Shown here piece by piece: positions 1,707 to 62,516 of a stretch of 64,000 bases of DNA (the stretch's first letter is position 1; each line of letters starts with the position of its first letter). The translations under genes were made by a program, and so were the position numbers. The notes under the pieces are model-generated. The model was not told the DNA's origin. It ran no database searches and saw only the letters and a program-made list of their open reading frames with translations. This DNA is from a virus. Lineage: Duplodnaviria > Heunggongvirae > Uroviricota > Caudoviricetes. The stretch is from the IMG/VR virus record IMGVR_UViG_3300028585_000002, positions 15,337 to 79,336 of that record; one strand, 5' to 3'.

Positions 1707-1724
1707 GTGACTCTATATAGTCAC
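1707..1724. promoter_or_regulatory. Inverted repeat GTGACTctatatAGTCAC (variant of the window-wide palindrome) with embedded TATATA, in the 5' region of the minus-strand XRE gene
   Basis: Read directly from the sequence; position suggests an operator or promoter for gene 1220..1675. Confidence 0.35.
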
Positions 1725-1892
1725 TGCTGATTTATTTTACTAAACCATTATAGCGCGCCAGTTAGCAAAGAATCATTAACTCGACAGCCCCAAGTGGTCA
1801 TAAGTATTTGATTTCCTGAAGATTTATCGTTCCTGAATTATTTTTTATAACTAGAAACAGAACTTTTCATTGTCGCGAAGCTAACATAAAAG

Positions 1893-1914
1893 TAAGTCGC
1901 AACTGATCTATAAT
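1893..1914 (+). promoter_or_regulatory. Degenerate copy of the recurrent motif with TATAAT -10 element (TAAGTCGCAACTGATCTATAAT)
   Basis: Sequence match to the repeated AAGTCAC-N3-GTGA..ACTATAAT cassette. Confidence 0.35.
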
Positions 1915-1976
1915 CCCTTACAATGATTGCGTACCGGACACAAACGATGCGCCTCTAAACTTGGGAGAATTTTGAA

Positions 1977-2168
1977 GTGAGCAACGCAGTAGTCACAAAT
2001 AAGCAACAAATTATTAGCCTTGAAGACTTCGCCGACCTCCTGGATGCCAGCACTGTTGAAAGTGTTCTGGATCTTGGCGGTACGATCCTGCACCGTGTGC
2101 TGCACCCAGTTATGGGTGCCTTGGTCCTGGTGAATACGACTTCGCTGAACGCATACATGGCTCTGTAG
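1977..2168 (+). CDS. small hypothetical protein (GTG start)
   Basis: ORF-track ORF preceded by GGGAG; followed by a strong terminator. Short, with no recognisable domain. Confidence 0.2.
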   Translation: MSNAVVTNKQQIISLEDFADLLDASTVESVLDLGGTILHRVLHPVMGALVLVNTTSLNAYMAL

Positions 2169-2185
2169 TACCGCTGGACCCAACA

Positions 2186-2250
2186 GCCCGTTAGGCACGA
2201 GCGCAGGACAGATACCAAACCTGCTTGCTCGTCCTGACGGGCTTTTTTAT
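2186..2250 (+). terminator. Rho-independent terminator
   Basis: Long imperfect stem GCCCGTtAGGcACGAGC ... GCTCGTCCTGACGGGC followed by CTTTTTTATA. Confidence 0.6.
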
Positions 2251-2297
2251 ACTTGAACCTATCAGTCACTAATGACTTCATAACGGGAGCAAAAAAA

Positions 2298-4397
2298 ATG
2301 GCACAAAACGACCGTATATACATTATGCGAGAGGCTATCACAAAACTGACGCAAATGTTGGCGGGGCGCGGCATTCAGGTTACGCAACGTGGTATTTCTG
2401 CATACGTGAAGGCCGACACCACCGGTCGTCCATATCACGTCAACCTGCCGTACATCCCCGACAACGCGAACATGGAGCTGCTGGATGCCATCCAGGGCTT
2501 CCTCGATCACGAGGTCGCGCACATTCTGTTCACCGAATTCCCACTGATGGGCCAAGCGCAGAAGTTCGGCGCCGGCGGCATGCTGAACCTGATCGAAGAC
2601 AGCCGCATCGAGCGCGCGATGGCCGGGCGTTTCCAAGGTTCGGCGGAAAACATGGCCCGCATGGGTAAGTTCTTCCTCGACAAATACACCACGCCGCACA
2701 TGAATGCAGCGCTGGAGAGTGGCAACGACCAGGAGCTGATCGCTGTGCTGACCGTGCCGCTGGTGCGCATGATGGCGGGGCAGCAGGTGTTCGCTGAATA
2801 TATGCGCGACAAGATGCATCACGTCCAGGAGCTGCACGACAAGATCAAAGACCTGCAGCCGAAGATCGCGGGCGCCGCATCAACGAAGGACTGCCTGGAC
2901 CTGGCGAAGATTATCGTCAAGCGCCTGCGGGACGGTGAGCCGTCGCCATCGGACGAAGAAGAAAGCGGCGCGATGCCGATCCCGATGCCCAAACCGAAGG
3001 GCGGCAGCGGCAGCAAGGCCCCGAAGGGCAAGGACGAAGGCGAAGAAGCGGGTACGGCGACCGGTTCGCCCACTGCCGGCGACGACGACGCGGGTGACGA
3101 AGGCGAGGAAGAGAAAGAAAAGGGCGCCAGCGCCGGCGGCAAGAAGGAAGACGACGACGCGAAGGGCGACGAAGAAGGCGACGACAAAGAAGCACCGGCA
3201 GCTGGCGACGAAGAAGGCGACGATGAAGAGGCCCCTGCGGCCGGTAACTCGGACGAGGAAGTCGGCCCGGAAGAAGCCCCGGCCGGCGACCTGTCGGCAG
3301 GTGGTGATAGCGACGGCGACGGCGACGAAGGTGGCGGCGAGGCGGGCGGTGGCCCGATGCAAGCGCCCAACGCGGAAGAAGAAATCGACATCGCGCAGTC
3401 GTCCTCGATCTCGTGGGAAGCCATCGACCGGGAAACCGCAAAGGACTATGACGATGTGGCTTCGGGTCTGATCACCGACACGACGGCCAAAGCCGCCCTT
3501 GCTGCTGACTACCTTGTCTACACGACGGACGAAGACATCGTCGAACCGCTCAAGATCGGCAGTGGCTACACCGACTCGATGCTGACCGGTCTGCAGGATA
3601 AGGTCGACCACATGATCGGGCCACTGCAGAAAGACCTGGAGCGCGCCATCAGCGCCAAGAGCCTGTCGCACTGGAACCCTGGCCACCGCAGCGGGCGCCT
3701 GAACTCGGCCGCCCTGTCGCGCCTGGCCACGAACGACAGTCGCGTGTTCCGGCGCAAGGTCGAAGCGACCACGAAGGACGTGGCGGTCATGCTGCTCGAC
3801 GACATGTCCGGCTCGATGGACGGTGAGAAGATCCACACCGCGGCCCAGGCGTCGTATGCGCTCGCGTCCACGCTCGACCGCATCGGCATCCCCAACGAGG
3901 TCATGGGCTTTACGACCGGGGCCGGCATGGGTGGTGGCGACCTGAACCTGCTGCGCGCGGAGGAGGCCAAGATCGGGCGCCAGTACAGCCGCTACGAGCA
4001 GCTGTACATGCCGATCCTCAAGACGTTCTCCGAGCGGATGAGCACGGAGGTCAAGAAGCGCTTTGGCTGGTTGCCGTACACCAGCGCCATGCGCAACAAC
4101 GTGGATGGTGAATGCGTGGAGATTGCCGGCCGTCGCCTGCTCGCCCGCCGCGAAACGGGCAAGATCCTCATCGTCCTGTCCGATGGCGCACCGCACGCAT
4201 ACGGCTACACGAACACGCTGCAGCCGCACCTGAAAAAGGTGGTGGAGAACCTGACGCGCGCCGGGGTCAAGGTCATCGGCATTGGCATTCAGTCCAACGA
4301 CGTGAAGAAGTTCTACCCCAAGAACTTCGTGATCAACAAGGTCGACGAGCTGCCGGCTGTCGTCATGAAGGAACTGCGCCAGCTGATCGCCGGTTGA
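2298..4397 (+). CDS. CobT-like protein (aerobic cobaltochelatase CobT architecture): N-terminal CobT-like region, long acidic low-complexity linker, C-terminal von Willebrand factor A domain
   Basis: RBS GGGAG then ATG at 2298. VWA MIDAS motif LLDDMSGSMDG and ...ILIVLSDGAPH. Asp/Glu/Gly-rich middle region. Immediately followed by the CobS-like AAA+ gene. Confidence 0.65.
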   Translation: MAQNDRIYIMREAITKLTQMLAGRGIQVTQRGISAYVKADTTGRPYHVNLPYIPDNANMELLDAIQGFLDHEVAHILFTEFPLMGQAQKFGAGGMLNLIEDSRIERAMAGRFQGSAENMARMGKFFLDKYTTPHMNAALESGNDQELIAVLTVPLVRMMAGQQVFAEYMRDKMHHVQELHDKIKDLQPKIAGAASTKDCLDLAKIIVKRLRDGEPSPSDEEESGAMPIPMPKPKGGSGSKAPKGKDEGEEAGTATGSPTAGDDDAGDEGEEEKEKGASAGGKKEDDDAKGDEEGDDKEAPAAGDEEGDDEEAPAAGNSDEEVGPEEAPAGDLSAGGDSDGDGDEGGGEAGGGPMQAPNAEEEIDIAQSSSISWEAIDRETAKDYDDVASGLITDTTAKAALAADYLVYTTDEDIVEPLKIGSGYTDSMLTGLQDKVDHMIGPLQKDLERAISAKSLSHWNPGHRSGRLNSAALSRLATNDSRVFRRKVEATTKDVAVMLLDDMSGSMDGEKIHTAAQASYALASTLDRIGIPNEVMGFTTGAGMGGGDLNLLRAEEAKIGRQYSRYEQLYMPILKTFSERMSTEVKKRFGWLPYTSAMRNNVDGECVEIAGRRLLARRETGKILIVLSDGAPHAYGYTNTLQPHLKKVVENLTRAGVKVIGIGIQSNDVKKFYPKNFVINKVDELPAVVMKELRQLIAG

Positions 4398-4419
4398 CGC
4401 CCTAAAAATGATCGCTCGG

Positions 4420-4443
4420 ATAAGTCACAAGTGACTTGCTTAT
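4420..4443 (+). promoter_or_regulatory. Perfect palindrome ATAAGTCACaagTGACTTgcTTAT (recurrent motif copy)
   Basis: Intergenic between the CobT-like and CobS-like genes. Confidence 0.4.
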
Positions 4444-4528
4444 CCGGGTGGTCATCGGTATCATGTTTTCTGTTGCAGCACTAATCGAATTTTTACAACG
4501 GGCGAGTAGCCCACCGTGGAGAACCACT

Positions 4529-5722
4529 ATGACCGAAAAAATCACCTGCAAAATCTGTGGCGCGCAAGAGCACGTCATCAAGACCCACCTGACCAAGGAC
4601 CACCCTGAGTGGACCGTCGAGAGCTACCAGACCAAGTTCCCAGAAGCGCCGCTGATGTCCGCGTTCGCCCTGGAGCTGCTGGAGAAGAAGCGCCGCGAAC
4701 GTGACGCTGCGACCACCGCGGCGTCGGCGTCGACGACGATGGAAATGGCCGGCACCGCCACCGCTTCCGTGAGCACCCTGATCCCGAAGGGCCACCCAAC
4801 GAAGCGTCCGCTGCACGAGACTTTCGATCTCGGCCGCGTGAAAGCAGCCCTGAGCGCTAAAGGCGATCCGATCCCGATCAGCGTGCTCACGGCGCACGAC
4901 CAGCAGAACATGGTTCCGCCGATCTCGGACAACTACGTCTATGACATCGACGAATTGAAGAACGTGATCCTGGCGCTCGAGTTGAACATTCCGTGCCTGG
5001 TCTGGGGCCACAAAGGCTCGGGCAAGTCGGAGCTGCTGGAGCAGGTTTGCGCCCGCACGAATCGTCCAATGCTTCGCGTCCAGCACACGGTCAACACCGA
5101 AGAAAGCCACATCGTCGGGCAGTGGACGGTCAAGGGTGGGCAGACTGAATTCGAACTCGGCCCGCTCCCACTGGCGATGATCAACGGCTGGGTCTTCTGC
5201 GCCGACGAATACGATTTTGGTATGCCATCGGTCCTCGCCGTGTATCAGGCCGTCCTTGAAGGTAAGTCACTGGTGATTAAAGAGGCGCCCGCAGATAAGC
5301 GCATCATCAAGCCAGCGGCGGGCTTCCGCTTTGTCTCGACCGGCAACACGAACGGTTCGGGCGACGAGTCGGGCCTGTATCAGGGAACGATGATCCAGAA
5401 CTCGGCCAACTACGACCGCTTCGGCATGGTGATCAACAAGCGCTACATGGAGAAGAAGGCAGAGAGCCAGATCCTCCAGAACCACTGCAAGCTGGTGGCC
5501 GACGACGCCGACAAGATGGTCGAGTTCGCCACGCTGGTGCGCCAGGCATACGACGGCGCCAAGATGAGCGACACGATCTCGCCCCGTACCCTGATCTACG
5601 CGAGCCGCATCGGCGTGATGCGCGGTTCGTTCCGCGTCGGGCTGCAGCTGTCCTTCATCAACAAGCTGGGCAAGATCGACCGCGAAGTGGCAGACGGCCT
5701 GGCACAGCGGATTTTCGGGTAA
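4529..5722 (+). CDS. CobS-like / MoxR-type AAA+ ATPase
   Basis: Walker A GHKGSGKSELLEQ. N-terminal Cys/His cluster KITCKICGAQEHVIKTHLTKDH. Likely start MTEKI at 4529. Partner of the upstream VWA protein. Confidence 0.65.
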   Translation: MTEKITCKICGAQEHVIKTHLTKDHPEWTVESYQTKFPEAPLMSAFALELLEKKRRERDAATTAASASTTMEMAGTATASVSTLIPKGHPTKRPLHETFDLGRVKAALSAKGDPIPISVLTAHDQQNMVPPISDNYVYDIDELKNVILALELNIPCLVWGHKGSGKSELLEQVCARTNRPMLRVQHTVNTEESHIVGQWTVKGGQTEFELGPLPLAMINGWVFCADEYDFGMPSVLAVYQAVLEGKSLVIKEAPADKRIIKPAAGFRFVSTGNTNGSGDESGLYQGTMIQNSANYDRFGMVINKRYMEKKAESQILQNHCKLVADDADKMVEFATLVRQAYDGAKMSDTISPRTLIYASRIGVMRGSFRVGLQLSFINKLGKIDREVADGLAQRIFG

Positions 5723-5746
5723 TTGGCAGTAGAGGGGATTGGCATC

Positions 5747-6496
5747 ATGAATGAAACGCTCAGCTTCAAAGAAAACATCGGCCTGGTCCACTTCCACGCC
5801 AAGCGTGGGTTTGCAAGGGCACAGCAGGCGGGCGTTCCCCTCTCCTACGACGACATGTTCCAGGAGGCGTCGATGGCCTTCGTGATGGCAGCGCGCGGGT
5901 TCGATCCCGAGGCGGGCGTCAAGTTCTCGGCGTATTACACCCGCGCGGCGCACAGCCACTTCAGCAAGGCGATCGGCAAGTTCACCGGCGTGAAGCGCCT
6001 GACCGACGAAATGAAGGTCGAGATCGCCGAGCGCGACGAGGAGAACGCACGTCGCCGCGCAGCAGCGGAGCCGGAGCTGCCGAGCCTGCACTACGCGATC
6101 GCCTCGCGCAACTTCTCGGACATGGAAGCGGCCGGCGACGAGGGCGGTGATCCGTTCGAATCGTCGATCGCGTCCAACAGCCAGTCGCCCGAGGAGATCA
6201 TCGAAACGAAGCAGCTAATGGACCGGGCGATGGCGAACCTGTCGCCCCTGGCGAACCTGATGGTGGACTGGCTGCGCGACCCACCCCCGGAGCTGGTGAG
6301 CGAACTGCGCAGCCAGCGCGCGCACGCCGCTGTTGCCGACGAAGTTGGCGTGCATGCGCGCGCCATGAAGGAAGGACTTTCGCTCATCACCGTCAAGAAG
6401 TTCCTGACGATGCTGGGTGGCGCCACCGAGCGCGAACTGTCGATGGCGGAATGCGAACTGCGCAACGCCGTCAAGTATATCGAGGAAGCAGCATGA
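5747..6496 (+). CDS. sigma-70 family RNA polymerase sigma factor (regions 2 and 4 only; ECF/group-4-like size)
   Basis: Region 2-like DDMFQEASMAFVMAARGFDPEAGVKFSAYYTRAAHSHFSKAI. C-terminal HTH-like segment. Start MNETLSF at 5747. Confidence 0.55.
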   Translation: MNETLSFKENIGLVHFHAKRGFARAQQAGVPLSYDDMFQEASMAFVMAARGFDPEAGVKFSAYYTRAAHSHFSKAIGKFTGVKRLTDEMKVEIAERDEENARRRAAAEPELPSLHYAIASRNFSDMEAAGDEGGDPFESSIASNSQSPEEIIETKQLMDRAMANLSPLANLMVDWLRDPPPELVSELRSQRAHAAVADEVGVHARAMKEGLSLITVKKFLTMLGGATERELSMAECELRNAVKYIEEAA

Positions 6497-7152
6497 TCGA
6501 ACAAAAAGCCCCTGGCTGCTTCGGCGCCGCGAGTGTCTACAGCCAGGATTCATCGGTGTGCAAGGGCTGTGTGGCCTACGACCAGTGCAACAGCGCCTCG
6601 CTGGCCACCCTGGAGTCGATCCGCGCAACGGTTGACGTGCGCGACCTACTCAAGCGCCACGCTGTCGCTCGCGCGAAAGCCGCGCCGGCGCCGGCCCAGA
6701 CCAAGCCACTCGAGAAGTCGCCGATCAAGGTGGCCCAGCCGAAGGTGGCGAACAAGCCGCTGACCCGCACCACGGCCCAGGAGCGCGTGACGTTCGCCAT
6801 GACGGTGGAGATGACCACCACGATCGAGCGGATCGCCGCCCAGAACAAGAAAGCGGCCGACCAGGCTACGACGCTGTGCAAGATGGGTCGCATCAACGAC
6901 ATGCGCTCCATGCTCCCGCAGCGCATGAACCCGTTCGCAGAGGGCGGGCCAGCTTACCTGCGCGTGGTCTGCAACCACCTCATAAATGGCGGTTTCACGC
7001 GCGCTTCCCTGCGCGTCGCAATGGCCCAGGAGCTGGGCTGGAGCGAGGAGACCGCAGCGTCGCACATTTCGATGGCGATAGCGGTGCTGGGCGCGTTCAG
7101 GATTGTTGGTAAGGACGGTGACAACATCGTTCTGCATCCTGGCCTGGGTTGA
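6493..7152 (+). CDS. hypothetical protein with N-terminal Cys cluster (CxxxxxCKGCxxxxQC)
   Basis: Start overlaps the sigma factor stop (ATGA), so translationally coupled to it. Confidence 0.45.
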   Translation: MIEQKAPGCFGAASVYSQDSSVCKGCVAYDQCNSASLATLESIRATVDVRDLLKRHAVARAKAAPAPAQTKPLEKSPIKVAQPKVANKPLTRTTAQERVTFAMTVEMTTTIERIAAQNKKAADQATTLCKMGRINDMRSMLPQRMNPFAEGGPAYLRVVCNHLINGGFTRASLRVAMAQELGWSEETAASHISMAIAVLGAFRIVGKDGDNIVLHPGLG

Positions 7153-7191
7153 GAGAATTACCGTATCACAACACACAAGAAAGGACACACC

Positions 7192-7425
7192 ATGAACGGT
7201 GGAACCTACAGCGAGGCCCTAAAAGTTGGCTTCAGCGAGCAGCAGGCGGGCTTTCTGGGCCGGCTGGGCGCAGAGACCTACAGCGAGACGCTGGAAGAAG
7301 TTGAACAGCGCCTGCAAGCGGCAAATAGCAAGCGTAACAGCATGCACATCGGCATGGCGATCACCGGCTTCGCGCTGGTAGTGGCCCTGCTCGTGGGCGT
7401 GGCAATCGGGAAGGCATTCGCATGA
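7192..7425 (+). CDS. small membrane protein (single C-terminal TM helix)
   Basis: IGMAITGFALVVALLVGVAIG hydrophobic stretch; stop overlaps the dnaE start. Confidence 0.4.
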   Translation: MNGGTYSEALKVGFSEQQAGFLGRLGAETYSETLEEVEQRLQAANSKRNSMHIGMAITGFALVVALLVGVAIGKAFA

Positions 7426-10400
7426 ACATCAATCACGCCCTGTCAGTACGCAGCGACTTCTCCATCGGGCAGTCGCTGCTGCAGGCAGATCACATCATCG
7501 ACGAGGCCAAGAAGCACGGCTACGAGTCGGTCGCCCTGGTGGACGACATGTCGATCCACAACATGGTCGACTTCTCCAACAAGTGCAAGAAGGCCGGCAT
7601 CAAGCCGATCATCGGCTGCCGCCTGCGCGTCGTTGATGATCCGACCTACCGCAAGCCGAGCAAGGCGTCGGGCGAGGCGGAGAAACCGAACCCGCTCGTC
7701 ATGCTCAAGGTGTACGCCGTCGACGAGACCGGCATCCAGAGCCTGCTCAAGCTGCTCACGAAGGCCAACAGCGCCGAATACTTCTACTATCACAGCCGTT
7801 GCGGCTGGAAGGACGTGATGGAGATGAAGGGCGTCGTTGTCACGACCGGCGACTTCTACAACCTGTTTAGCCACCCAGGCCACGAGGACATCATCGGCGA
7901 CCTGGCGCACCGGTTCGAACACTTCTACTGCGAGCTGACGCCGATCAACACGCCGCTGTTCGACACGCTGAACGCAAAGGCGCTCGCGATTGTGCAGGCG
8001 AACCCTGGCATGAAGACCCTCGTCACCTATCCGTTCATGTACCGCGACGACGCCGACGCCGACACGCTGGAGGTGCTGAACGTCATCACGACGCAGAACA
8101 AGATGTCGACCCCTTGGCGCCCGAAGCAGGCAGTCAAGGAGTTCGGCTTCAAGGCCCCGCTCGACATCGGCAAGCGCATGCTCGCCGCCCACAAGCGCGC
8201 CGCCCAGTGGAGCGGCGTGTCCGCGCCCGACCTGTGGAAGCAGGGCCTGGTCAACATCGAGAAGGTCGCGGGCCTGTGCGCCTACGAATTCAAGAAGCAC
8301 CCGGTCTCGCTGCCGCAGATGGCGCCCAACGAGTTCGAAGCGCTTGGCCAGAAGTGCATCGCCGGCTGGAAGAAGCGTTTTGGCCAGGAAGTGCTGGGCC
8401 ACCGCCCGGCCGCCGCCGACATGCCCACGTATCAGGCCCGCCTGAAGTACGAGCTGTCCGTCTTGAAGAAGATGGGCTTTGCCGGCTACTTCCTCCTGGT
8501 CGAGGATCTGGTCATGTGGGCCAAGAACAACGGGATCATCGTCGGCCCTGGCCGGGGTTCCGTGGGCGGCTCGCTGGTCGCGTACCTGATCGGCATCACC
8601 GACGTGGACCCGATCCGCTTCAACCTGCTGTTCGAACGCTTCATCAACCCCGAACGCCTCGACTTGCCCGATGCCGACTTGGACTTCATGTCCACGCGCC
8701 GCCACGAGGTCATCGAGTACCTGACGGCCAAGTATGGCGCCGACCGCGTCGCCGGCATTTCGAACTTCTCGACCCTGGCGTCGGCGTCTGCCCTGCGCGA
8801 CACCGGGCGCGTGTACGAGCTGGACAACCTGGCCCTGTCGGTGACGAAGCTGGTGCCGAAGGAGCATGGCCAATCCATGACCCTGACCAATTCGGCCGAC
8901 GCGGTCGCTGACATCGAAAAGTTCCGCGATGACCACCCCGGCATCTGGGGCCACGCCCTCAAGCTGGAAGGCGTCATGCGTAACTTCGGCCAGCACGCCG
9001 CGGGCACGGTCGTCGCCGGCGAGCCGCTGGTGAACCGCGCCGTCATCGAGACGCGCAGCGATGGCATCCCGGTCACGAATTGGGACAAGCGCGTCGTCGA
9101 GGACTGGGGCCTGGTCAAGATGGACATTCTGGGCCTGTCCACGCTCGACGTGCTGGAGATCGCCCGTAAGTACATCAAGGACCGTCACGGCAAGGACATC
9201 AGCTACGTGAACCTGCCGCTCGAGGAGCCGGACGTGATGGCGGCCTTCGCGCGCGGTGACACGACTGGCGTGTTCCAGTTCGAATCGCCAGGCATGAAGA
9301 AGCTGCTGAAGGACTTGGCCAAGGGCGGCCCGCTCACGTTCGAAGACATTTCGGCTGCCACTGCGCTGTACCGGCCGGGTCCGATGGATTCGGGCATGCT
9401 CGAGGACTTCGTGGCCATCAAGCAGGGTCGCAAGTCGCCGTATTACGAGCACCCGAACATGGAAGCGGCGCTGTCGTCGACAGGTGGCGTGGTCGTGTAC
9501 CAGGAGCAGGTCATGCAGCTGTCCGTCGACCTGGCCGGCTTCACCGGCGCCGAAGCAGACAACCTGCGGAAAGCGATGGGCAAGAAGGACGCCGACAAGA
9601 TGGCGGAAATGCGCGACAAGTGGGTCAAGGGCTGCGAGGACAAGTCGAGCATGGATCCGATGACGGCGGGCCAGCTGTTCGACAAGATCGAGTCGTTCGC
9701 CGGCTACGGCTTCAACAAGTCGCACTCGGTCGAGTATTCCGTGATCTCGGTGTGGACGATGTGGGTGCGCGTGCGCTACCCAGCCGAATACTTCGCTGCC
9801 TGCCTGTCGATCGTCGGCGACGAGAAGCTGACCGGCCTTGTCAACGATGCGCGCAGCTGCGGCATCGAGGTGCTGCCGCCGGACATCAACATGTCCAGCG
9901 ACCGCTTCACGATCCCGGACGACAAGCACCTGCTGGCACCGTTCAGCAAGGTCATGGGCATTTCGGAGAACACCGCGCGCCGCATCGCTGAACTGCGAGA
10001 GCGTAACCGCGACTGGAAGGTGGCGCGCATCAAGAAAAAGCGCGACGGCACGACGGAGGAGGTATGGGAGCCGGATGACACCTGCCCGATCAAGGGCCGC
10101 TTCGACACCATCGACGAGTTCCTGCAGACCGCTGCGCAGCCGGGATCGAAGGTCAATGCCCGCGTGGTGGAGAACCTGCGTCTGGTCGGCGCCCTTGCCG
10201 CGATCGAGCCTGGCGCCAAGCCGGCCCGCGACCTGTCGCGCCGTAAGGACCAGACCGAGCTGATGCCGGGTCTGATCATCGACGCGGTCAAGGCTGACCG
10301 GACCACGGACGTGACGGAACCCTTCGTGAAGGCGAAGATCATTCACATCGTCCAGGACTACCGCGGCTGCCAAGCCTGTGATCTGTCCGGCCAGCCGCAC

Positions 10401-10874
10401 CCGGCGATCCGGATGAAGTCGAACGTCAAGTTCATGGTCGTGTCCGACTGCCCGAACTGGCAAGAGGAGAAGGCCAACAAGCTGATGGAAGGCGACACCG
10501 CTGACTGCGTGAAGACCGCGATCAAGGAAGCGGGAATCGCACCGGGCGACGGGTATTTCACGACTCTGGTGAAGGCCAAAAAGAATGACAAGTTCTTGAC
10601 CAACCAGCAGATGAATGGCTGCGCGCAGTACCTGTCCCGCGAGCTGGACGTGCTGAGGCCGCCGATCATCGTGGCACTGGGCGCCGCGTCGATCAAGCGC
10701 TTCCTGCCTGGTCACAAGGGCGGCACCACGGAGCTGATCGGCAAGGCGATCTACGACGCGAAACTGGACGCAACCATCGTGTGCGGACTGAACCCGCAGC
10801 AGATTTACCACGACCCGGCGAAGCAACTCGTCCTCAACGACGTGTTCGCAAAAGTAGCCGAGATTTTGAGCTAG
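7422..10874 (+). CDS. dnaE: DNA polymerase III alpha subunit (DnaE-type, PHP domain) with a C-terminal uracil-DNA glycosylase family-4-like domain
   Basis: [71 protein letters not shown] is the canonical Pol III alpha palm motif. The C-terminal ~185 aa (CQACDL...[12 protein letters not shown]...[13 protein letters not shown]...CGLNPQQIY) parallels family-4 UDG. Confidence 0.9.
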   Translation: [1150 protein letters not shown]

Positions 10875-10885
10875 GCAATGTGCGC

Positions 10886-10906
10886 GGGAGGGGTGCCCCT
10901 CCTGCG
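10886..10906 (+). terminator. GC-rich hairpin GGGAGGGGtgCCCCTCC after dnaE (no U-tract)
   Basis: Read directly from the sequence. Confidence 0.3.
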
Positions 10907-10957
10907 TGCGATATGTACCATTAACCTGTAGCAACACTCTCAACTGGAGAAATAAAC

Positions 10958-12154: not shown

Positions 12155-12185
12155 GATCACTTTTGCCTCCCTGTGGCTGCAAAAG

Positions 12186-12208
12186 TAAGTCACAGGTGAG
12201 CTATAATG
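12186..12208 (+). promoter_or_regulatory. Recurrent cassette TAAGTCACaggTGAGCTATAATG
   Basis: Palindrome half-sites plus TATAAT. Confidence 0.5.
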
Positions 12209-12274
12209 TGAATGCCCGATGACGAAAGTCTGACGGCACCTAACTTACTGACAAACCAACCCACGAAAGAACTC

Positions 12275-13108: not shown

Positions 13109-13128
13109 GTCGTTAGTGACTGAATGAG

Positions 13129-13156: not shown

Positions 13157-13170
13157 CTTCGGAGATACAA

Positions 13171-14076: not shown

Positions 14077-14085
14077 AGGAACACC

Positions 14086-21554: not shown

Positions 21555-21567
21555 TTGCGTCCACATA

Positions 21568-53225: not shown

Positions 53226-53250
53226 TAAGTCAGTCGTGACTGACTATAAT
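53226..53250 (+). promoter_or_regulatory. Recurrent cassette TAAGTCAGtcgTGACTGACTATAAT upstream of the AT-rich gene (about 150-nt leader)
   Basis: Read directly from the sequence. Confidence 0.55.
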
Positions 53251-53398: not shown

Positions 53399-54070
53399 AT
53401 GGGTAAAGCAATGAAAGCATCGACGATCGTCAACAAACTCGCAGCGTCGGTATCGAACCGGGTTCAATTATTAGTTGACGCGGGCGAACACGTCGCAAGC
53501 GAATTCAAAAAGATCAACGAACTGTATCAAGCTGATGGTAAGCATCGCGGTTCGTTTGAACGTGCAGTCGAAACGGTGAAAGATCAGATTGATTTTGATC
53601 TCTTACTGAAAATCATCGGTAAAGCAAAGCAAGATGGTGCGAACGATAGCAACTACGTGCAAGCGAAAGTGATCGAGAAAATCAACAAACTGATTTTCGC
53701 ACTTGCGAATAAAGACCTGCGTGCTACCGATAACCATACTCGCTCGCTCATGGTCAATGCGATGCTGAACGGGAAACTGTCGAGCAAAGCAGCGTTTGCA
53801 ACGCTGGTTAAGGTCGAATGGGGTGACGAAATCAGCGAAATGCTGCGCGAGCGTAACAACTACACAGCAGGGACGGGCAGCACGCAACTGTCGAGCACGA
53901 AAGAAACAATGCGCATTCTCGGTCTGAGCGCTAACGCGAAGGGCACGAAAAACGCTGATTTTACTTTCACCGAAGAAGGGCAAGCGCTGTTCTGTGAGCG
54001 CTTCGAAAAGATCGCAGCGCTTGTGCAAAGCGCTGAACAGATCGAAGAAGAACTGAGCACTGAAGAATAA
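53399..54070 (+). CDS. hypothetical protein encoded by an atypical low-GC (about 48%) gene with AAA/GAA-biased codon usage
   Basis: RBS AAGAGGttacaaaATG; codon usage differs sharply from flanking genes (Lys AAA, Glu GAA rather than AAG/GAG); stop TAA is part of a motif copy, followed by a hairpin. Confidence 0.55.
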   Translation: MGKAMKASTIVNKLAASVSNRVQLLVDAGEHVASEFKKINELYQADGKHRGSFERAVETVKDQIDFDLLLKIIGKAKQDGANDSNYVQAKVIEKINKLIFALANKDLRATDNHTRSLMVNAMLNGKLSSKAAFATLVKVEWGDEISEMLRERNNYTAGTGSTQLSSTKETMRILGLSANAKGTKNADFTFTEEGQALFCERFEKIAALVQSAEQIEEELSTEE

Positions 54071-54084
54071 GTCACAAGTGAGTT

Positions 54085-54106
54085 AGCAAGGGCAAGCGCC
54101 CTTGCT
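54085..54106 (+). terminator. Hairpin AGCAAGGGCaagcGCCCTTGCT after the AT-rich gene
   Basis: Perfect 9-bp stem; weak U-tract. Confidence 0.45.
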
Positions 54107-55017: not shown

Positions 55018-55650
55018 TTGAAAGTCATCGCATTCCTGAATCAGAAGGGCGGCGTCGGAAAGACCACGCTGGCCGTTGGCATTGCCACCTTCCTCTCCCG
55101 CCTGGGCCACCGCGTTCTGCTCATCGACGCCGACCCCCAAGGCAGTGCCCTGGACTGGGCGGCTGCGCGCGCTGGCGATCCCATGTTCCCAGTAGTGGGT
55201 CTGCCGCGCGCGACCATCCACCGTGAGATTGACCAGATCGGCGCCGACTACGACTACGTGGTCATTGACGGCCCGCCGCGCGTGACGGACCTGGCCCGCA
55301 GCGCCATCATGGCCGCCCACCTGGTCGTGGTGCCGGTACAGCCTTCGCCGTACGACGTGTGGGCCGCCGAGGAGATCATCAAGCTGATCGAGGAAGCGCG
55401 CATCTACAAGGAAAGCCTCAAAGCTGTGTTTGTGGTGAATCGCAAAATCGCAAATACGGCGATCGGTCGGGACGTGGGGGAGATTTTGAACCAGTACGCA
55501 CTGCCAACCCTGGCCGCGACAGTCACCCAGCGCGTCATCTTTGCCGAGGCAGCTGCGGAGGGCAAGGCGGTCTTTGAGATCGACCCGGAAGGTCCGGCAA
55601 CCCTGGAGATGGCCGAGCTGACGGCCGAGATCGAGAAGGTGCTGGGATGA
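55018..55650 (+). CDS. parA: ParA/ParF-type partition ATPase (small type Ib ParA)
   Basis: Deviant Walker A NQKGGVGKTT; LLIDADPQGS; ~210 aa. TTG start after GAGGAG (only in-frame ATG is far upstream at 54892). Upstream TTACCGgaTTACCG repeats. Confidence 0.75.
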   Translation: MKVIAFLNQKGGVGKTTLAVGIATFLSRLGHRVLLIDADPQGSALDWAAARAGDPMFPVVGLPRATIHREIDQIGADYDYVVIDGPPRVTDLARSAIMAAHLVVVPVQPSPYDVWAAEEIIKLIEEARIYKESLKAVFVVNRKIANTAIGRDVGEILNQYALPTLAATVTQRVIFAEAAAEGKAVFEIDPEGPATLEMAELTAEIEKVLG

Positions 55651-56405: not shown

Positions 56406-56861
56406 TTACCTCATACGGGTCAGCGTTGGTCTTCCGACGACACGTCGAAATGGGGCCTGCACATTCGTGACGACGCCGAAACTTAGCGAATAGGGTACGT
56501 GGACCGTAATGCCGCGCATGAGGAAGTCCCGCTCGTTCCGCGTCACCAGCGGAAGGTCGCGGACCTTGGCGGTCGCAGCAATGATGGCGTCGGGCAGTTT
56601 GATCTTCGGTGGCACCGTCAAGCTGAGCTTGCGCAGAGCGATTGCCTCGTCGGTAATCGCCTGGTCGATCTGAATCACCTCAAACTCGGCTAGCACCGCG
56701 TCCAGAATTGGCTTTTCTTCAGGGCGCTCACCGGAGCGCAGCTCCATGTATGTGATGATGCTGATGGCCGGGTTGTCGTACTGAGCCAGCTCAATGGTCG
56801 CCTGTTCGGCGCCATTGAGCATGTCGATGAAGATATTTGTGTCGAAGAGGATCAGCGCCAT
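56406..56861 (-). CDS. vapC: VapC-family PIN-domain toxin
   Basis: MALILFDTNIFIDML...ITYMEL...LPDAIIAATAKVRDLPLVTRNERDF: PIN acidic residues conserved. Confidence 0.7.
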   Translation of the reverse strand: MALILFDTNIFIDMLNGAEQATIELAQYDNPAISIITYMELRSGERPEEKPILDAVLAEFEVIQIDQAITDEAIALRKLSLTVPPKIKLPDAIIAATAKVRDLPLVTRNERDFLMRGITVHVPYSLSFGVVTNVQAPFRRVVGRPTLTRMR

Positions 56862-57132: not shown

Positions 57133-57462
57133 CTACGGGCGCATGGGTACGCGGAACTGCTCGAGGCTGCCGCCGGCGGCGAGTGCCTGCTGTAGCCAAG
57201 CCGGCCGCTTCCCGCGACCGCCCCAGGTGTTCTCCGCGTTGGCAGGATCTTGGTAAACATTCCCCGGCGTCGTCGCCTTGCGAGACTTGCGTTTCTCGTC
57301 CATCGCCAACAGCGTATGCAGCGGTATGCCGAACTGGTGGGCGAGGCTGTATATCTGGTCGATCGCAGCCTGACGCTCATGCTTCTCCCGCTTCTCCGCT
57401 TCCTTCGACACCTGATCCAGCAACTCACGCAGCTGGCCAAGGTTCAGTCCCGATAAGTCCAT
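57133..57462 (-). CDS. H-NS-family nucleoid-associated protein (xenogeneic silencer-like)
   Basis: C-terminal DNA-binding signature NTWGGRGKRPAWL; N-terminal coiled coil; 109 aa. Confidence 0.55.
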   Translation of the reverse strand: MDLSGLNLGQLRELLDQVSKEAEKREKHERQAAIDQIYSLAHQFGIPLHTLLAMDEKRKSRKATTPGNVYQDPANAENTWGGRGKRPAWLQQALAAGGSLEQFRVPMRP

Positions 57463-59070: not shown

Positions 59071-59381
59071 CAGACCAGCTCCACGACGGTCGCCGGCGCG
59101 TCCGGATCGGTGGTGCGCTTCTTGGCAATCGCCTCCAGCTCGTCTGGCGCCGGCGCGTACCAGGTGCCATCTTCGCGCCGCGCGACTTCGCACCAGTTGC
59201 CGGAGCCGACCAGGCTGAGCGCATCCCTGAAGTTCCAAGGGCAGACGCTGCGCACCTGGCCGTCCAGGGACATCGCGCGCCGGAGCGTGCAGCTGTCGCT
59301 GTCGTCGGGGAATTCGAACTCGACGTGGTGGATCCTGTCGTTGATCGGCAGGGCACCGGCCTTCATGAACATGCGCCTCAT
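59067..59381 (-). CDS. hypothetical protein, downstream partner of the RHH gene
   Basis: High GC3; ATGA overlap with the RHH stop. Confidence 0.4.
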   Translation of the reverse strand: MRRMFMKAGALPINDRIHHVEFEFPDDSDSCTLRRAMSLDGQVRSVCPWNFRDALSLVGSGNWCEVARREDGTWYAPAPDELEAIAKKRTTDPDAPATVVELVW

Positions 59382-59662
59382 TGCGCGCCCGCGCGCTCAA
59401 GGATGGCGGCCAGCTCGTCCGGAGGCAGGTTCTTGAGCTTGGCCAGGGTCTCGCGGGCGGCTGCGCGCTGAGCCAGCTTCTCCTGACGCTTGCTCTTGAG
59501 CAGGCGGTCGAACAAGGTATCCGGCTCTGGCATGTCGATGTCCTCCACCAGCACCTCAATCACCTCGCCTTGCGTCAGCTGGTAGGCCTTGGCCAGGCGG
59601 TGCAGGCGGTCGCGCGCGACCGGGTCGAGGTCGATGGTGTAGCGGGTGGTCTTGGTGGTCAT
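59378..59662 (-). CDS. ribbon-helix-helix (CopG/Arc-like) DNA-binding protein
   Basis: RYTIDLDPVARDRLHRLAKAYQLTQGEVIEVLV RHH fold; RBS GGAGAGcatcATG. Upstream ATATAATCACtcatcaGTGATT motif variant at 59679-59701. Confidence 0.5.
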   Translation of the reverse strand: MTTKTTRYTIDLDPVARDRLHRLAKAYQLTQGEVIEVLVEDIDMPEPDTLFDRLLKSKRQEKLAQRAAARETLAKLKNLPPDELAAILERAGAQ

Positions 59663-59774
59663 GATGCTCTCCATAATCAAATCACTGATGAGTGATTATA
59701 TCGCGCGATGATTTTATCTCACGCAAAAAAAAAGCGCTCATAAGAGCGCTTGAGGAGACACATCAATGTCAGGG

Positions 59775-59975
59775 TCAGGCCACAACGTCGGCTGTGAAGC
59801 CGATCGGCCTTGATTCGTCTTCGTCATCCCTCTGGGAGAAGAAGCCAGGCTGCGCGTTCATTGGAAACGGCAGCAGGAAGGTTAGAGCCAGCAGAGCCAG
59901 CGGGTTGTGCTCGCTGAAAATCACGAAACACACAGCAAGGACGATCAGGGTGTTGATGATCAAAGTATGCTTCAT
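59775..59975 (-). CDS. small membrane protein
   Basis: LIINTLIVLAVCFVIF TM segment; low GC; weak. Confidence 0.3.
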   Translation of the reverse strand: MKHTLIINTLIVLAVCFVIFSEHNPLALLALTFLLPFPMNAQPGFFSQRDDEDESRPIGFTADVVA

Positions 59976-60450
59976 GGCGTCTTAAGTAAGTCAGCAATGA
60001 GTGAAGAATATCACGCGTGTAGCCGTGATGCAAGTAGCATTCGCCAAAAATGTATAGTTCCTCTATACTGTACGGATATACAGTGCTTTTGACGCCTCAG
60101 ATTGTGCGCCAGCAAATAGTTGTTGCAAGGTTGAACATTTTCGTCTACGATTTCAGTCCGCATTGGAATGTTTCCTTTGCGACTCTTTTACGGATTGTTG
60201 TTCCAAATGTTTCCAGCCTGCATAGGTCTACACCTTAGACAAAGAAGATTCGGGTCTTAATTGACCCAGTCTTTTACCGAATTGATTCCGCTTTAGTGTC
60301 GGATAGATCCCGGTTTGTCTAAAAGTTTGTGCTTATGCGTTTGCTGCTCGCCTTATGGAGTCGAATGTGAGTTTTCACACTCGATAAGGCGAGGATAAGC
60401 GTCTGTTTCCCGATTTTGGGAATGCTAATCGTCAATTTAAAGGAACAACA

Positions 60451-60711
60451 ATGAAATCCGAATACAAAATCCTCCTCACTTCCGCAACGGACTCGAATGA
60501 TTGTGAGTCCGAGTTCTTCGCGTTCAACACATCGCTCACTCCGGCCAATGACGCGATCCTCGCTCAGGTAGTAGTCGACACCATCGCCAGGCTGTACGAG
60601 AAGCAGGAGCGCGAAATGCTCTGCGTGTGGGAGCTAGACGTGCTGGACAACGAATGTGCGTTCTTCCAAGCCAACCCCCAAAATTCCCAGGCGTGGCAGT
60701 CCCGCGCGTAG
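60451..60711 (+). CDS. hypothetical protein
   Basis: RBS AAAGGAAcaacaATG; lower GC. Confidence 0.3.
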   Translation: MKSEYKILLTSATDSNDCESEFFAFNTSLTPANDAILAQVVVDTIARLYEKQEREMLCVWELDVLDNECAFFQANPQNSQAWQSRA

Positions 60712-60728
60712 ACGCCAGGTGGCCGTCG

Positions 60729-62471
60729 TCAGGCGGCCAGCTTCACCTTCTGGGGAAAGCCCATCGACGCCAGGTCGAAGTCGCAACCGTTCTCGTAGAT
60801 GAACCGTTCGAAGCCTGGCGTGCCTTTGATGATTTCCTGGCGTTGTTTGGCGTGGCCAACCAGGTAGTCGTTGAAGGCGTCGGCAAAGTCCGTGACGTAG
60901 CAGACGTTCGGGCCGACCTTCTTGGCGCGCAGCCCGCGACCGATGCGCTGACGTAGCGCCACCTCTGCCTTGCCACCACCGGCGAGGAAAACATGGCCCA
61001 CGGCCGGCACGTCCACACCCACATCAAGGATGGTGGTCCCGATAAGCACGTCGATCATGCCGGCGGACAGCTTCTTCAATGCGCGCTTGCGTCCCTCCTG
61101 GTCGTCTTCGCCCCGGATGAACTCGACGCGCAGCCCAACCTCACGCATGGCCGCCTCCAATACCTCTCCGTGACGGGTCTGCTGGATCAGCACCATTGAC
61201 GTGAGACCGTGGTCAGCCATGCGCCGGCACTCGGTCACGATGATCTCGTTGCGGTGCTCATTGTCCACGATGCCCAGACGGTATGCCGACTGCCAGCCGG
61301 TGCCGCGCGCCAGCTTGGCGGGCTTCTGCCGGAGCGGGATGAACTTGAAGTGCGGCTGGGCCAGGATGCCGCGGTCGATCAGCATCTGCTCGGTGATCTT
61401 GATGGCGATCGGGCCGGAGCACGCCATCAGGCGCATGTTCGATTCTTCGTCGCCCTTCATGAACGGGGTGGCCGTCAGCGCCAGGCGGTAATGGGCGTTT
61501 TTGCAGTGGCGCAGGATCTCGTAGTAGCTGTTGCCTGACGCCTCATGCGCTTCCTCGAGGATGACCAGGCCGAAGCGCTCGAGCAAGGCGATCGTGCGCG
61601 CGCGCTCGCGCATGTGGGTCGATACCTTCACCGCGGCGTCGGCGCGCATGCTCTCGGCCAGCTTCTTGCGCTCGGCGGTCTGACGCGCTTCGAACACCTT
61701 CAGCTTCTCCTTGCGCGCGGCCAGCGTGCCGCCCAGCGCCAGCAACTGGGTCTCGTAGGCCTTGTATTCCTTCAGTTCCTTCTTCACCCGCGCATCCATC
61801 ATCTTTTCCAGCTCGCCGTCGACGGTCTTTTCCTCGAGGCGCGCGATCAGGGTCTGGACCATCCCGACGCACATCTTCTTGACCGCCTGGCGGCCGTCGG
61901 CCGTGGTGTGCCCGAACTGGCCGTCGCCCAGAACCGAGACCGCCGTGCCCATTTCTTCGAAGGCGTCTTTCATCTGGTACATCAGGATGCCGCGCGTGGT
62001 CAGGAACAGGGTCGGCAGGTTGATCGAGGCGAAGGCCATGCGCGCGATCCGGCTCTTGCCGCCGCCGGTGGCCACCTGGGCGATGATCTGGCCGTGCTTG
62101 CGCAGACGCTTGACCACCTCCGGCTGGTAGTCGTAGCGCGGGTCGTAGCCGAACGAGTCGATCTCGGGCAGCTCGGGGCCTTGCGGCTCGGGCAGGGCCT
62201 TACGCGCGTGGCGAATCTGGTAGCCCTGCTGACGCAGCTTCGCTGAGACGTAATGGACGAAGCCGGCGGGGAAGGTGCCCAGCTTGAAATCGAGGAAGGA
62301 CGAGCGGCCGTCCCAGTTGCCGCGCTTGAAGGCGATGCTGTGTTCGGCGCCGCCGACGGCGTACGACAGGATGTCCTGGACCGCCAGCTTAACCTCGCGG
62401 CTCGGCTCATGCAGTTTGGCGACGGTGGCGTTACTTGCGATGGTGATTGTGAGGCTCATTAGGCTTGCCAA
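60729..62471 (-). CDS. superfamily-2 DEAH-type DNA helicase with unknown ~100-aa N-terminal domain and a coiled-coil insertion
   Basis: Motif I ATGGGKS, motif II ILEEAHE, motif III TATP, motif VI QRIGRGLR. Confidence 0.75.
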   Translation of the reverse strand: MASLMSLTITIASNATVAKLHEPSREVKLAVQDILSYAVGGAEHSIAFKRGNWDGRSSFLDFKLGTFPAGFVHYVSAKLRQQGYQIRHARKALPEPQGPELPEIDSFGYDPRYDYQPEVVKRLRKHGQIIAQVATGGGKSRIARMAFASINLPTLFLTTRGILMYQMKDAFEEMGTAVSVLGDGQFGHTTADGRQAVKKMCVGMVQTLIARLEEKTVDGELEKMMDARVKKELKEYKAYETQLLALGGTLAARKEKLKVFEARQTAERKKLAESMRADAAVKVSTHMRERARTIALLERFGLVILEEAHEASGNSYYEILRHCKNAHYRLALTATPFMKGDEESNMRLMACSGPIAIKITEQMLIDRGILAQPHFKFIPLRQKPAKLARGTGWQSAYRLGIVDNEHRNEIIVTECRRMADHGLTSMVLIQQTRHGEVLEAAMREVGLRVEFIRGEDDQEGRKRALKKLSAGMIDVLIGTTILDVGVDVPAVGHVFLAGGGKAEVALRQRIGRGLRAKKVGPNVCYVTDFADAFNDYLVGHAKQRQEIIKGTPGFERFIYENGCDFDLASMGFPQKVKLAA

Positions 62472-62492
62472 GTTACTAGATTAGGAATAAAG

Positions 62493-62516
62493 TATAAGTC
62501 ACGACTGACTTACATG
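62493..62516 (+). promoter_or_regulatory. Recurrent palindrome TATAAGTCACgacTGACTTACATG
   Basis: Read directly; lies in the divergent region between the helicase and the ParB-like gene. Confidence 0.45.

Follow-up and report, generated by a model that had tools for sequence, protein, structure and literature searches.

We analyzed a 64,000-nucleotide stretch of DNA from a tailed virus (positions 15,337 to 79,336 of IMG/VR record IMGVR_UViG_3300028585_000002; hereafter the window, numbered from its first letter), which is part of a ~110-kb phage-plasmid, and found that it carries an 18-bp near-palindrome at 30 distinct places. Our preferred reading, to which we assign a probability of about 0.55, is that these repeats may be dispersed operators and "stoperator-like" sites of a phage-encoded immunity repressor of the XRE/Cro-CI type, the product of gene 1220-1675. 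An earlier note on this DNA, made from its letters alone, had listed an operator of XRE proteins among several explanations of the repeats, and this is the alternative that we now favor. The observations that carry it are the sites themselves, their enrichment, their intergenic placement in the orientation of the genes, their fixed registers relative to promoter hexamers, their conservation across a family of relatives, and their co-occurrence and co-variation with the XRE-type gene.

Results

Sequence, number, and placement of the repeats

Across the family the element reads T(A/C)AGTCA-N4-TGACT(T/G)A, with two bases between its 7-mers. In the window, read at the coordinates given in the earlier note, it takes the form (T)AAGTCAC-N2-GTGACTT, which is equivalent to AAGTCA-N4-TGACTT. 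That note had spelled it AAGTCAC-N3-GTGACTT, a pattern that had no match in the window even when two mismatches were allowed; its center had been miscounted. All of the start coordinates listed there proved to be real copies, displaced by 0 to 5 nt. When at most two mismatches were allowed, AAGTCA-N4-TGACTT matched the window 26 times versus an expected 1.33, a number that no shuffled sequence reached, and TAAGTCA-N4-TGA with at most one mismatch gave 42 strand-hits, again versus 1.33 expected. A weight matrix built from the sites of relatives only and applied with a cutoff of at least 14 bits gave 28 plus-strand and 24 minus-strand matches, versus 0.35 expected, and these correspond to 30 distinct sites in 64 kb, bearing out the claim that the element recurs more than 20 times. 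The copies that had been overlooked are those at 16272, 39752, and 51995 and one inside a gene at 5263.

The sites were, as had been claimed, restricted to intergenic DNA: by our own gene calls, which gave a coding fraction of ~0.81, 29 of the 30 lay in the ~19% of the window that is noncoding. The sole coding copy, at 5263, encodes EGKSLVIKEA of an AAA ATPase, is conserved, and recurs in all relatives; it was rejected as a regulatory site and is regarded as a conserved protein-coding look-alike. The better-scoring strand was the direction of the gene at ~23 to 25 of 28 sites, the asymmetry being modest in an element that is nearly palindromic, and the minus-strand genes (the XRE gene and 59378-59662) have minus-oriented sites. 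The leading TAA is the stop codon of the upstream gene at four sites (13106, 16710, 44887, and 54068), and the open reading frame (ORF) 16311-16712, whose stop lies in site 16710, was shown to be real. Extended arms are present at 21568, 32440, and 42677, as described previously, and the proposed association of the element with promoters and gene boundaries also held. Sites were found in promoter-less gaps of 23 to 39 nt, both in the window and in an Acinetobacter relative, and were absent before parA and the toxin/accessory block at 54.1 to 59.6 kb.

Conservation in a family of phage-plasmids

The motif is conserved in ~85 metagenomic relatives, in plasmids of A. baumannii, and in Rhizobium phage RHEph10, where a copy reads TCAGTCA-ATAT-TGACTGA. 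An exact-pattern scan of IMG/VR for the motif plus TATAAT returned more than 115 stretches with G+C contents of 0.40 to 0.67, and many contigs of ~100 to 118 kb were matched several times. The 17 loci found through the AAA ATPase (62 to 85% identical) each had 6 to 11 co-oriented copies per ~20 kb, except for L122, with three copies, and the short locus L124, with one. When related genomes were compared, the sites stood at orthologous junctions with diverged flanks, in relatives that are 50 to 70% identical in protein.

The closest annotated relatives of the window are A. baumannii plasmids of ~108 kb, whose DnaE is 60% identical. One of them, NZ_CP140432.1, shares synteny with the window and encodes a complete siphovirus module for structure and lysis, and the element to which the window belongs is therefore a phage-plasmid. 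This plasmid has the variant TCAGTCA-N4-TGACTGA at 36 sites in 108 kb, versus 4.5 expected, with 31 of the 36 in the intergenic 12% of the genome and with copies in the replication, structural, and lysis modules. Sites in its late structural operon occupy gaps of 36 to 39 nt (terminase/portal and tape-measure/tail) that leave no room for a promoter. The E. coli phage-plasmid PhiR41_1 (L203, PV340561.1), also of ~108 kb, has TAAGTAA as its conserved left arm and a poorly conserved right arm; the gene strand has 10 copies of TAAGTAA, of which nine are intergenic, versus one occurrence of TAAGTCA. The closest match to the window's AAA ATPase, at 93% identity, was found in a 113-kb contig of Massilia sp. 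TN1-12, which makes Massilia or a close relative of it the probable host. No close deposited phage was found at the DNA level, a megablast search with 24 kb giving only short matches in conserved genes, and neither the motif nor the way in which this family of phage-plasmids is regulated was found described in the searchable literature, the coverage of which is incomplete.

Registers of the sites relative to promoter hexamers

Promoter hexamers were located relative to the first T of the site (offset 0) in pools of 158 and then 364 nonredundant sites from across the family. Hexamers resembling a -10 were found at offset 15 or 16 in 76 of the 364 sites (30 + 46), over a background of 2 to 3 per offset. 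In this arrangement, class A, the center of the palindrome lies at approximately -19.5, the right arm is sacrificed to the -10 (TGAACTATAAT), and no -35 peak was seen at any offset in either pool. Class B sites have the -10 at offset 38 (50 of 364, with the same background) and the center of the palindrome at approximately -41.5; the last two T's of the right-arm TGACTT are shared with a TTGnnn -35 that is separated from the -10 by a 17-nt spacer, and TTG was found at offset 15 in 14 of the 158 sites. The class A and class B registers are 22 bp apart, or about two helical turns. A third group is marked by a broad excess of -10 hexamers at -20 to -2, which places the site over the start or the 5' untranslated region (UTR); this is seen in all relatives at the site preceding the VWA gene and, in the window, at 29933, 49683, and 59695 (minus strand). 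Sites of a fourth group have no promoter at fixed offsets and abut the ribosome-binding site (RBS), with Shine-Dalgarno-like words peaking at offsets 17 to 19; once the AAA coding look-alike was removed, the RBS-abutting sites were mostly the orthologous copy before the VWA gene, which also belongs to the third group.

These registers amend two earlier statements. TATAAT had been reported at a fixed spacing after seven copies; it stands at offset 16 in five of them (1893, 12186, 21570, 25438, and 35762) but at 19 to 20 in the other two (53226 and 21995). The palindrome had been assigned to the spacer between the -35 and the -10, which is correct for one geometry but not for at least two others, out of three or more. 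Canonical sigma-70 promoters of the TTGACA-17-TATAAT type were scarce in window positions 1 to 20000, with 2 found versus 4.7 in shuffled sequences. The sites of the window, including the coding look-alike, are as follows.

1717-1734, minus strand: weak site at the XRE gene's own promoter; minus-strand -10 TATATA at 1714-1719, offset 15.
1893-1910, plus strand: class A site TAAGTCGCAACTGATCTA before the small conserved ORF 1977-2168; TATAAT at offset 16.
2262-2279, plus strand: site directly before the RBS of a VWA/CobT-like gene; -10-like TATACT upstream at 2248-2253, so placed that the site would span about +6 to +23; preceded by a terminator-like hairpin (2227-2242); ortholog in all relatives.
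4421-4438, plus strand: class B site before the AAA-ATPase, sigma-like, and DnaE genes; -35-like TTGCTT at 4436-4441, overlapped by the right arm; 17-nt spacer; -10 TATCAT at 4459-4464; orthologous class B site in 16 relatives.
5263-5280, plus strand: nonregulatory look-alike inside the AAA ATPase gene (coding sequence EGKSLVIKEA).
12186-12203, plus strand: class A site before the gp32-like single-stranded DNA-binding protein (SSB) gene; TATAAT at offset 16; orthologs are class A in ~10 relatives and the Acinetobacter plasmid (85163), with a TAAGTAA variant in E. coli PhiR41_1.
13106-13123, no strand: site whose TAA is the stop of gene 12275-13108; terminator-like hairpin after it (13134-13148).
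16272-16289, plus strand: intergenic site, 5 nt past gene 15901-16266.
16710-16727, plus strand: site whose TAA is the stop of ORF 16311-16712; SbcD-like gene 5 nt on; terminator-like hairpin before it (16669-16690).
21570-21587, plus strand: class A site with a second right arm downstream; 13-bp arms at 21568-21580 and 21594-21606 flank the -10.
21995-22012, plus strand: site before the gene for the ribonucleotide reductase (RNR) large subunit; TATAAT at offset 20.
25438-25455, plus strand: class A site; TATAAT at offset 16.
28743-28760, plus strand: class B site; -35-like TTGTAA; -10 TAAGAT at offset 38.
29933-29950, plus strand: site over the predicted start, before the helix-turn-helix (HTH) gene 29974-30276; TATAAT just upstream at 29924-29929.
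31359-31376, plus strand: site abutting the RBS of gene 31386-31586; no -10 at offsets 15/16 or 38.
32445-32462, plus strand: site with extended 14-nt arms (32438-32451 and 32456-32469).
35762-35779, plus strand: class A site filling a 23-nt intergenic gap; TATAAT at offset 16.
39752-39769, no strand: site 8 nt before gene 39778-40122; left arm degenerate.
42678-42717, no strand: two tandem sites (42678-42695 and 42700-42717), 22 bp apart, with a shared -10 TATCAT (42716-42721) that lies at offset 38 relative to the first site and 16 relative to the second, i.e., both geometries in one promoter; the trfA-side genes, on the other strand, run divergently from the region 42676-42721.
44887-44904, plus strand: site whose TAA is the stop of gene 44251-44889.
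49683-49700, plus strand: site between an upstream -10-like TATTAT and the RBS.
51995-52012, no strand: site 12 nt before gene 52025-52198.
53226-53243, plus strand: site with TATAAT at offset 19.
54068-54085, plus strand: site whose TAA is the stop of gene 53399-54070; GC-rich hairpin after it.
59678-59695, minus strand: degenerate site directly downstream of TATAAT, before minus-strand gene 59378-59662.
59987-60004, plus strand: intergenic site beside the start of minus-strand gene 59775-59975.
62495-62512, no strand: perfect 18-bp palindrome in the divergent region between a helicase gene (minus strand) and a ParB-like gene (plus strand).

Several other assignments of the hexamers were tried and rejected. 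TAAGTC or ATAAGT as a -10 fails at the key A-11 or T-7 position, and Acinetobacter has TCAGTC there. The SSB promoter has TTG-like hexamers 22 to 23 bp 5' of the -10, a spacing too long for a sigma-70 -35. A promoter for a T7-type single-subunit polymerase was considered for TAAGTCACGACTGAACTATAAT and dismissed, the site being palindromic and taking several registers; no single-subunit polymerase gene was noted among the called genes, only ~20 of which were scanned against family libraries.

Some further signals lie close to the sites. A CGTCC block is found 8 to 12 nt 5' of four of them (at 16698-16709, 21558-21569, 21983-21994, and 25426-25437), preceded by a T-run in three of the four; site 21570 has TAATTG there instead. 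Class B promoters of relatives have a recurring (T/C)CCTG block at offset ~23 to 27. Both blocks may be degenerate half-sites (AGTCC) or some other signal, and a reading of the CGTCC block as an extracytoplasmic function-type promoter element was rejected, no consistent -35 partner being present. A conserved TGT(C/T)GCAG(C/T)A lies just 3' of the class B promoter at window ~4470-4482 and at its orthologs in L119 to L135, in the 5' leader of the AAA-ATPase/sigma-like/DnaE operon. In the Acinetobacter phage-plasmid, an Hfq homolog is located directly 3' of a class A-type site (L117 12666-13205, equivalent to NZ_CP140432.1 62666-63205).

The XRE-type gene and co-variation of the half-sites

Two genes of the control region are as follows.

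1220-1675, minus strand: XRE-type HTH gene, 151 amino acids, proposed to encode the site-binding protein; Pfam HTH_3/HTH_19 and PHROG transcriptional regulator/repressor families.
1977-2168, plus strand: small conserved ORF in the "cro position"; homologs 36 to 46% identical at the same position in most relatives; no family match.

The XRE-type gene is divergent and syntenic in nearly all relatives and in the Acinetobacter plasmid, and three to four sites lie between it and the early operon (1717/1734, 1893, and 2262 in the window; 74719-75561 in Acinetobacter). Among solved structures, its best sequence match was 8bny, the Rco repressor of pLS20. Its HTH region is nearly invariant wherever the motif is invariant. 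The earlier note had spoken of two XRE paralogs, a description that found no support: the second HTH protein (29974-30276) showed no similarity to the first that could be detected, and the Acinetobacter relative lacks it.

A scan with an alignment of the XRE protein gave 65 loci on the same backbone, for which palindrome totals were summed by hand. Loci whose recognition helix reads x(K/R)PN..(T/S)M had 208 AGTCA-N4-TGACT palindromes versus 14 of AT type or hybrid, whereas loci with the helix xN(P/R/A)N and/or ..TL had 6 such palindromes versus 36 sites with AGTAA or TTACT. At the orthologous promoter before the AAA gene, L199 has AAGTAA-GGCG-TTACTT in class B geometry, and PhiR41_1, with its TAAGTAA sites and the helix KNANNLSL, fits the same pattern. 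On the AAA-ATPase tree, N-type helices arise at at least four places; the M-to-L change has two origins, both accompanied by the loss of all GTCA palindromes. Where a recognition helix begins with Asn in place of Lys or Arg, a shift of preference from a G:C to an A:T pair would be in line with general rules of protein-DNA recognition. Variant motifs in motif-negative loci were found by inspecting orthologous promoters; k-mer counting had been tried for this and abandoned, as it was swamped by GC-rich coding repeats.

Both arms of the element change together between lineages (TAAGTCA..TGACTTA versus TCAGTCA..TGACTGA), and this joint change of a symmetric site speaks for a protein that binds as a dimer and against a sigma factor. 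In its 5-N4-5 geometry, the element matches operators of the Cro/CI type, for example those of phage 434. Distant XRE homologs have a GCAGC-N4-GCTGC palindrome just 5' of their own start, with the same 5-N4-5 geometry and a different sequence: L205 (~11880-11928), which is Cereibacter p4, where the gene stands beside a type I-U CRISPR-Cas locus, and L206 (~11970-12015), a Ruegeria megaplasmid. These two homologs have N-type helices, and no AGTCA sites were found with them, so that they were set aside as an independent positive control.

DNA site or RNA hairpin

The evidence favors a sequence-specific DNA site over an RNA structure. Predicted RNA hairpins at the window copies are weak, with most at 0 to -5.7 kcal/mol and about one third at -1.4 or weaker. 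The stem-loop described in the earlier note therefore stands only in part: the copies are palindromic and some have extended arms, but about one third form no real hairpin, and it is thus the sequence and not the structure that is conserved. The nearly invariant left arm and the TGA are conserved and the remainder of the right arm varies, single-arm deviations occur without compensation on the opposite arm, and class A copies hold the left-arm sequence and lose pairing to keep the -10. Base-exact alignment with the -10 and -35 hexamers belongs to the DNA and therefore also argues against an RNA hairpin. No U-tract or T-run follows the arms, Rfam gave no match at gathering score in the whole window, and a terminator scan found hairpins beside three sites (2227-2242, 13134-13148, and 16669-16690) and not at the sites. 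The further proposal that each copy acts as a gene-end hairpin or terminator is not supported, on the same grounds, the true terminator-like hairpins being separate neighbors.

We consider it improbable that the element works at the RNA level, whether as a terminator or attenuator, a stabilizer, a processing signal, or the hairpin of a translational operator, given the weak and often absent structures, the uncompensated deviations, the broken pairing in class A, the exact registers, and the missing U-tract and Rfam family. That possibility draws on the palindromic form of the element and the extended arms of some copies, on the copies that abut an RBS (offsets 17 to 19) or an upstream stop codon, on the 7-bp arms of the Acinetobacter sites and the position of sites after its major capsid gene, and on flanking outer arms that co-vary before the AAA gene. 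These outer arms surround the class B site there and read CCTGCCCGGA/TCCGGGCAGG, CTGTCAGGA/TCCTGACAG, and TTACAGGA/TCCTGTAA in L119 (~9877-9925), L120 (~5590-5640), and L134 (~9890-9940), the orthologs of window 4412-4450; they suggest that a longer hairpin may matter at this one locus.

Other features of the window

The replication and repair genes of the window encode a polymerase III alpha subunit, the gp32-like SSB, a 5'-3' exonuclease, a RecA-like protein, and SbcCD, and further genes encode RNR, a ThyX-like protein, CobT/CobS-like VWA and AAA proteins, and a sigma-70 region-2 protein. In addition to the XRE-type HTH protein, it has the plasmid-type genes for a TrfA-type replication initiator and ParA. 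The plasmid/accessory block (37741-38220, minus; 40959-41996, minus; 55018-55650; 56406-56861, minus; and 57133-57462, minus) holds a TetR-family regulator, the TrfA-type initiator, and ParA, as well as a PIN-type toxin and an H-NS-like protein that were recognized only by eye. The G+C content of positions 1 to 2000 is 0.43, versus ~0.60 elsewhere in the window, and the minus-strand ORF 2-1135 had no homolog in 18 relatives; its region is probably recently acquired cargo beside the immunity region.

Discussion

A model for silencing, and what weighs against it

In the plasmid-prophage state, the repressor would occupy the ~30 sites of the window, and probably at least 40 genome-wide, silencing almost every lytic transcription unit. 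Sites at promoters overlap the -35 (approximately -41.5), the spacer and -10 (approximately -19.5), or the start (approximately +1 to +23), and binding there would block initiation. In the short gaps that have no promoter and lie just before an RBS, a bound site might act as a roadblock to read-through, stopping elongation as the "stoperators" of L5 do, and the weaker sites at the repressor's own promoter could provide negative autoregulation. The absence of sites before parA and the accessory/toxin block would be expected, because such genes must stay on in the plasmid.

A fuller form of this proposal is put forward tentatively, as something we would not yet bet on. It holds that a dimeric XRE protein may control at least 40 palindromes on a ~110-kb phage-plasmid, that one or two residues of its helix may set both the half-site and the immunity group, with K/R versus N and M versus L at the start of the helix giving GTCA versus GTAA, and that stoperator-like silencing might thus exist outside the actinobacteriophages, with two fixed promoter registers plus promoter-less gaps. 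The family concerned includes the ~108-kb A. baumannii plasmids, the ~108-kb E. coli relative with its SSU5-like gene content, Rhizobium phages, and many uncultured relatives.

A number of observations weigh against the repressor as the reader of these sites. The correlation of helix and half-site is imperfect, L182 having an N-type helix yet three CG palindromes, and it is partly confounded by shared ancestry. Two relatives, L132 and L134, have no XRE gene at the syntenic position but retain sites at normal density and strength, and another factor could be reading the sites there; alternatively, the loss of the gene may be recent, as in phage D29. No difference in site decay was found between XRE-less L132 and XRE-positive L154, a result that speaks for neither possibility. 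L132 is otherwise 83% identical to L154, from which it differs by a clean deletion of ~1.65 kb (at ~7326-7423) that removes the XRE gene and the control region, and it may be a naturally virulent derivative. The poorly conserved right arm of the E. coli variant is a poorer fit to a symmetric dimer. Sharp registers (15/16 and 38, the latter with a center at approximately -41.5) are expected of an activator that touches RNA polymerase, although they could equally follow if only a few registers allow the consensus of an arm to overlap that of a hexamer. Finally, class A promoters have a perfect TATAAT and no -35, and how they are driven without a positive factor is hard to explain.

The last two points keep alive the main rival, positive control, in which the palindrome would be the site of a positive regulator, either the XRE protein or another conserved phage protein, that recruits host polymerase to lytic promoters. 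We regard it as unlikely, though a serious contender. Class B resembles a class II-like arrangement, with its center at approximately -41.5 and a weak TTGnnn -35, class A with its palindrome just upstream of the -10 is similar to the late promoters of P1 that depend on Lpa, the first 20 kb have fewer canonical sigma-70 promoters than expected, and sites persist in the two XRE-less relatives. However, one type of site stands before early replication, late structural, lysis, and XRE genes, which is no single temporal class; many sites are found 3' of the -10, where they cover the start or 5' UTR, or else occupy gaps of 36 to 39 nt that have no promoter, and at such positions an activator would be functionless; and a need for the activator at every lytic promoter would create a bootstrapping problem.

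Two explanations from the earlier note are much less probable. One is that the motif is a promoter or upstream element read by polymerase carrying the phage's own sigma-like protein, the gene for which is listed here.

5747-6496, plus strand: gene for a sigma-like protein in which only region 2 was detected; Pfam Sigma70_r2, phrog_351.

This gene lies in the early operon and is conserved in most relatives, its product gave no match in a tblastn search against phages, and class A promoters, which have no -35, are like those of sigma factors that lack region 4. T4 gp55 is such a sigma factor, and its promoters have no -35. A symmetric site whose arms change together is nevertheless unfit for recognition by a sigma factor, the elements of which are not palindromic, and the site takes three or more positions relative to the -10. 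Moreover, PhiR41_1, in which no sigma gene lies between the CobS-like and DnaE genes, keeps the variant motif and, before its gp32-like gene, the class A geometry (TAAGTAAGCACTGATCTATCAT), and the motif variant tracks the XRE helix and not the presence of the sigma-like gene. On this evidence we consider recognition by the sigma-like protein very improbable. Least probable of all, in our judgment, is that the copies are mobile promoter cassettes like the PeSLs, which would have spread by recombination, would mark the boundaries of modules, and would share no trans-acting factor. As many as 24 identical bases are common to several copies (21570 and 25438), and four copies share the upstream T-run and CGTCC block, but similarity outside the 18- to 22-bp core is low and the genome is not T4-type. 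The sites also hold orthologous positions in relatives that are 50 to 70% identical, with diverged flanks, and therefore reflect purifying selection on a binding site and not recent copying.

Significance

Clinical Acinetobacter and Enterobacteriaceae commonly harbor phage-plasmids of this size class. As a class, phage-plasmids are frequent carriers of genes for antibiotic resistance (PMC9600943). How they remain silent as plasmids and switch to lytic growth is largely unexplained so far. If the repressor reading is correct, one motif and one candidate repressor would yield a map, open to testing, of almost every transcription unit in the family and a predicted rule for its immunity specificity, and the site together with the repressor would be a simple handle with which to engineer or induce phage-plasmids. 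Silencing through many sites would here rely on an XRE repressor acting as a dimer, would be conserved between Acinetobacter and the Massilia and Rhizobium phages, with a variant in E. coli, and would represent no new principle.

Comparison with known systems

The PeSL cassettes, to which the earlier note had likened the repeats, consist of a stem-loop followed by a complete early sigma-70 promoter and mediate the shuffling of modules in T4-type myoviruses. Like the repeats described here, they are short intergenic cassettes present in several copies, in which an inverted repeat is joined to a promoter with a -10. The resemblance is only superficial: in this siphovirus-type phage-plasmid, the palindrome takes two fixed registers in which it overlaps promoter elements, lies over a start, or has no promoter at all, its hairpins are weak, and its positions are fixed and orthologous.

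The control region is laid out as in lambdoid Cro/CI systems (lambda OR/OL and 434). Those systems likewise have a two-fold symmetric site of 14 to 18 bp whose half-sites are separated by about one helical turn (~10 bp), a repressor gene that diverges from the early operon with several copies of the site in between, and a protein of the HTH_3 type. They differ in having ~6 operators at two promoter regions, versus ~30 in 64 kb spread over all modules here, or ~5 times as many.

P1 is a plasmid-prophage in which a single repressor controls many transcription units through operators scattered around the genome. These operators number ~17 to 20 and are asymmetric 17-mers, and the protein that binds them, C1, is not known to be of the XRE/Cro type. 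C1 is the primary repressor of P1 (PMC10695390). The motif and protein described here are unrelated to those of P1. The 11 late promoters of P1 have a 9-bp inverted repeat and consist of a -10 with the repeat, which is conserved, just upstream and no -35 (PMC10695390). Class A sites (76 of 364) share that arrangement, whereas the palindrome is also found here at -41.5, over starts, and without a promoter, and its use is not restricted to late genes, as window class A sites precede SSB-like, RNR, ThyX-side, and XRE genes.

By analogy of function, the operator/stoperator regulon of the cluster A mycobacteriophages is the closest to the system proposed here, and the C1 regulon of P1 is also close. 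The sharp registers at -41.5 and -19.5 have, to our knowledge, not been described for L5. In cluster A (L5 gp71 and the TipsytheTRex repressor), more than 20 sites are found genome-wide, at promoters and in short intergenic gaps, with an orientation linked to transcription (PMC9283540). The window likewise shows more than 20 dispersed copies, placement at promoters and in gaps, and an orientation that follows transcription. The lytic mycobacteriophage D29 is apparently a deletion derivative of a temperate parent (PMC5712189), and L132 and L134 here keep their sites without a repressor gene. L5-type sites differ in being asymmetric 13-mers bound by a monomer through an HTH and a "stoperator" domain, whereas those described here are near-palindromes of 14 to 18 bp; gp71 is unrelated to the 151-amino-acid XRE-type candidate, and the hosts here are Proteobacteria and the element a phage-plasmid. 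With its palindromic site and ordinary XRE-type protein, the element belongs to neither the L5-type nor the P1 C1 family. If our reading is correct, the "silence everything" strategy of L5 and P1 would have arisen again with an ordinary dimeric XRE protein.

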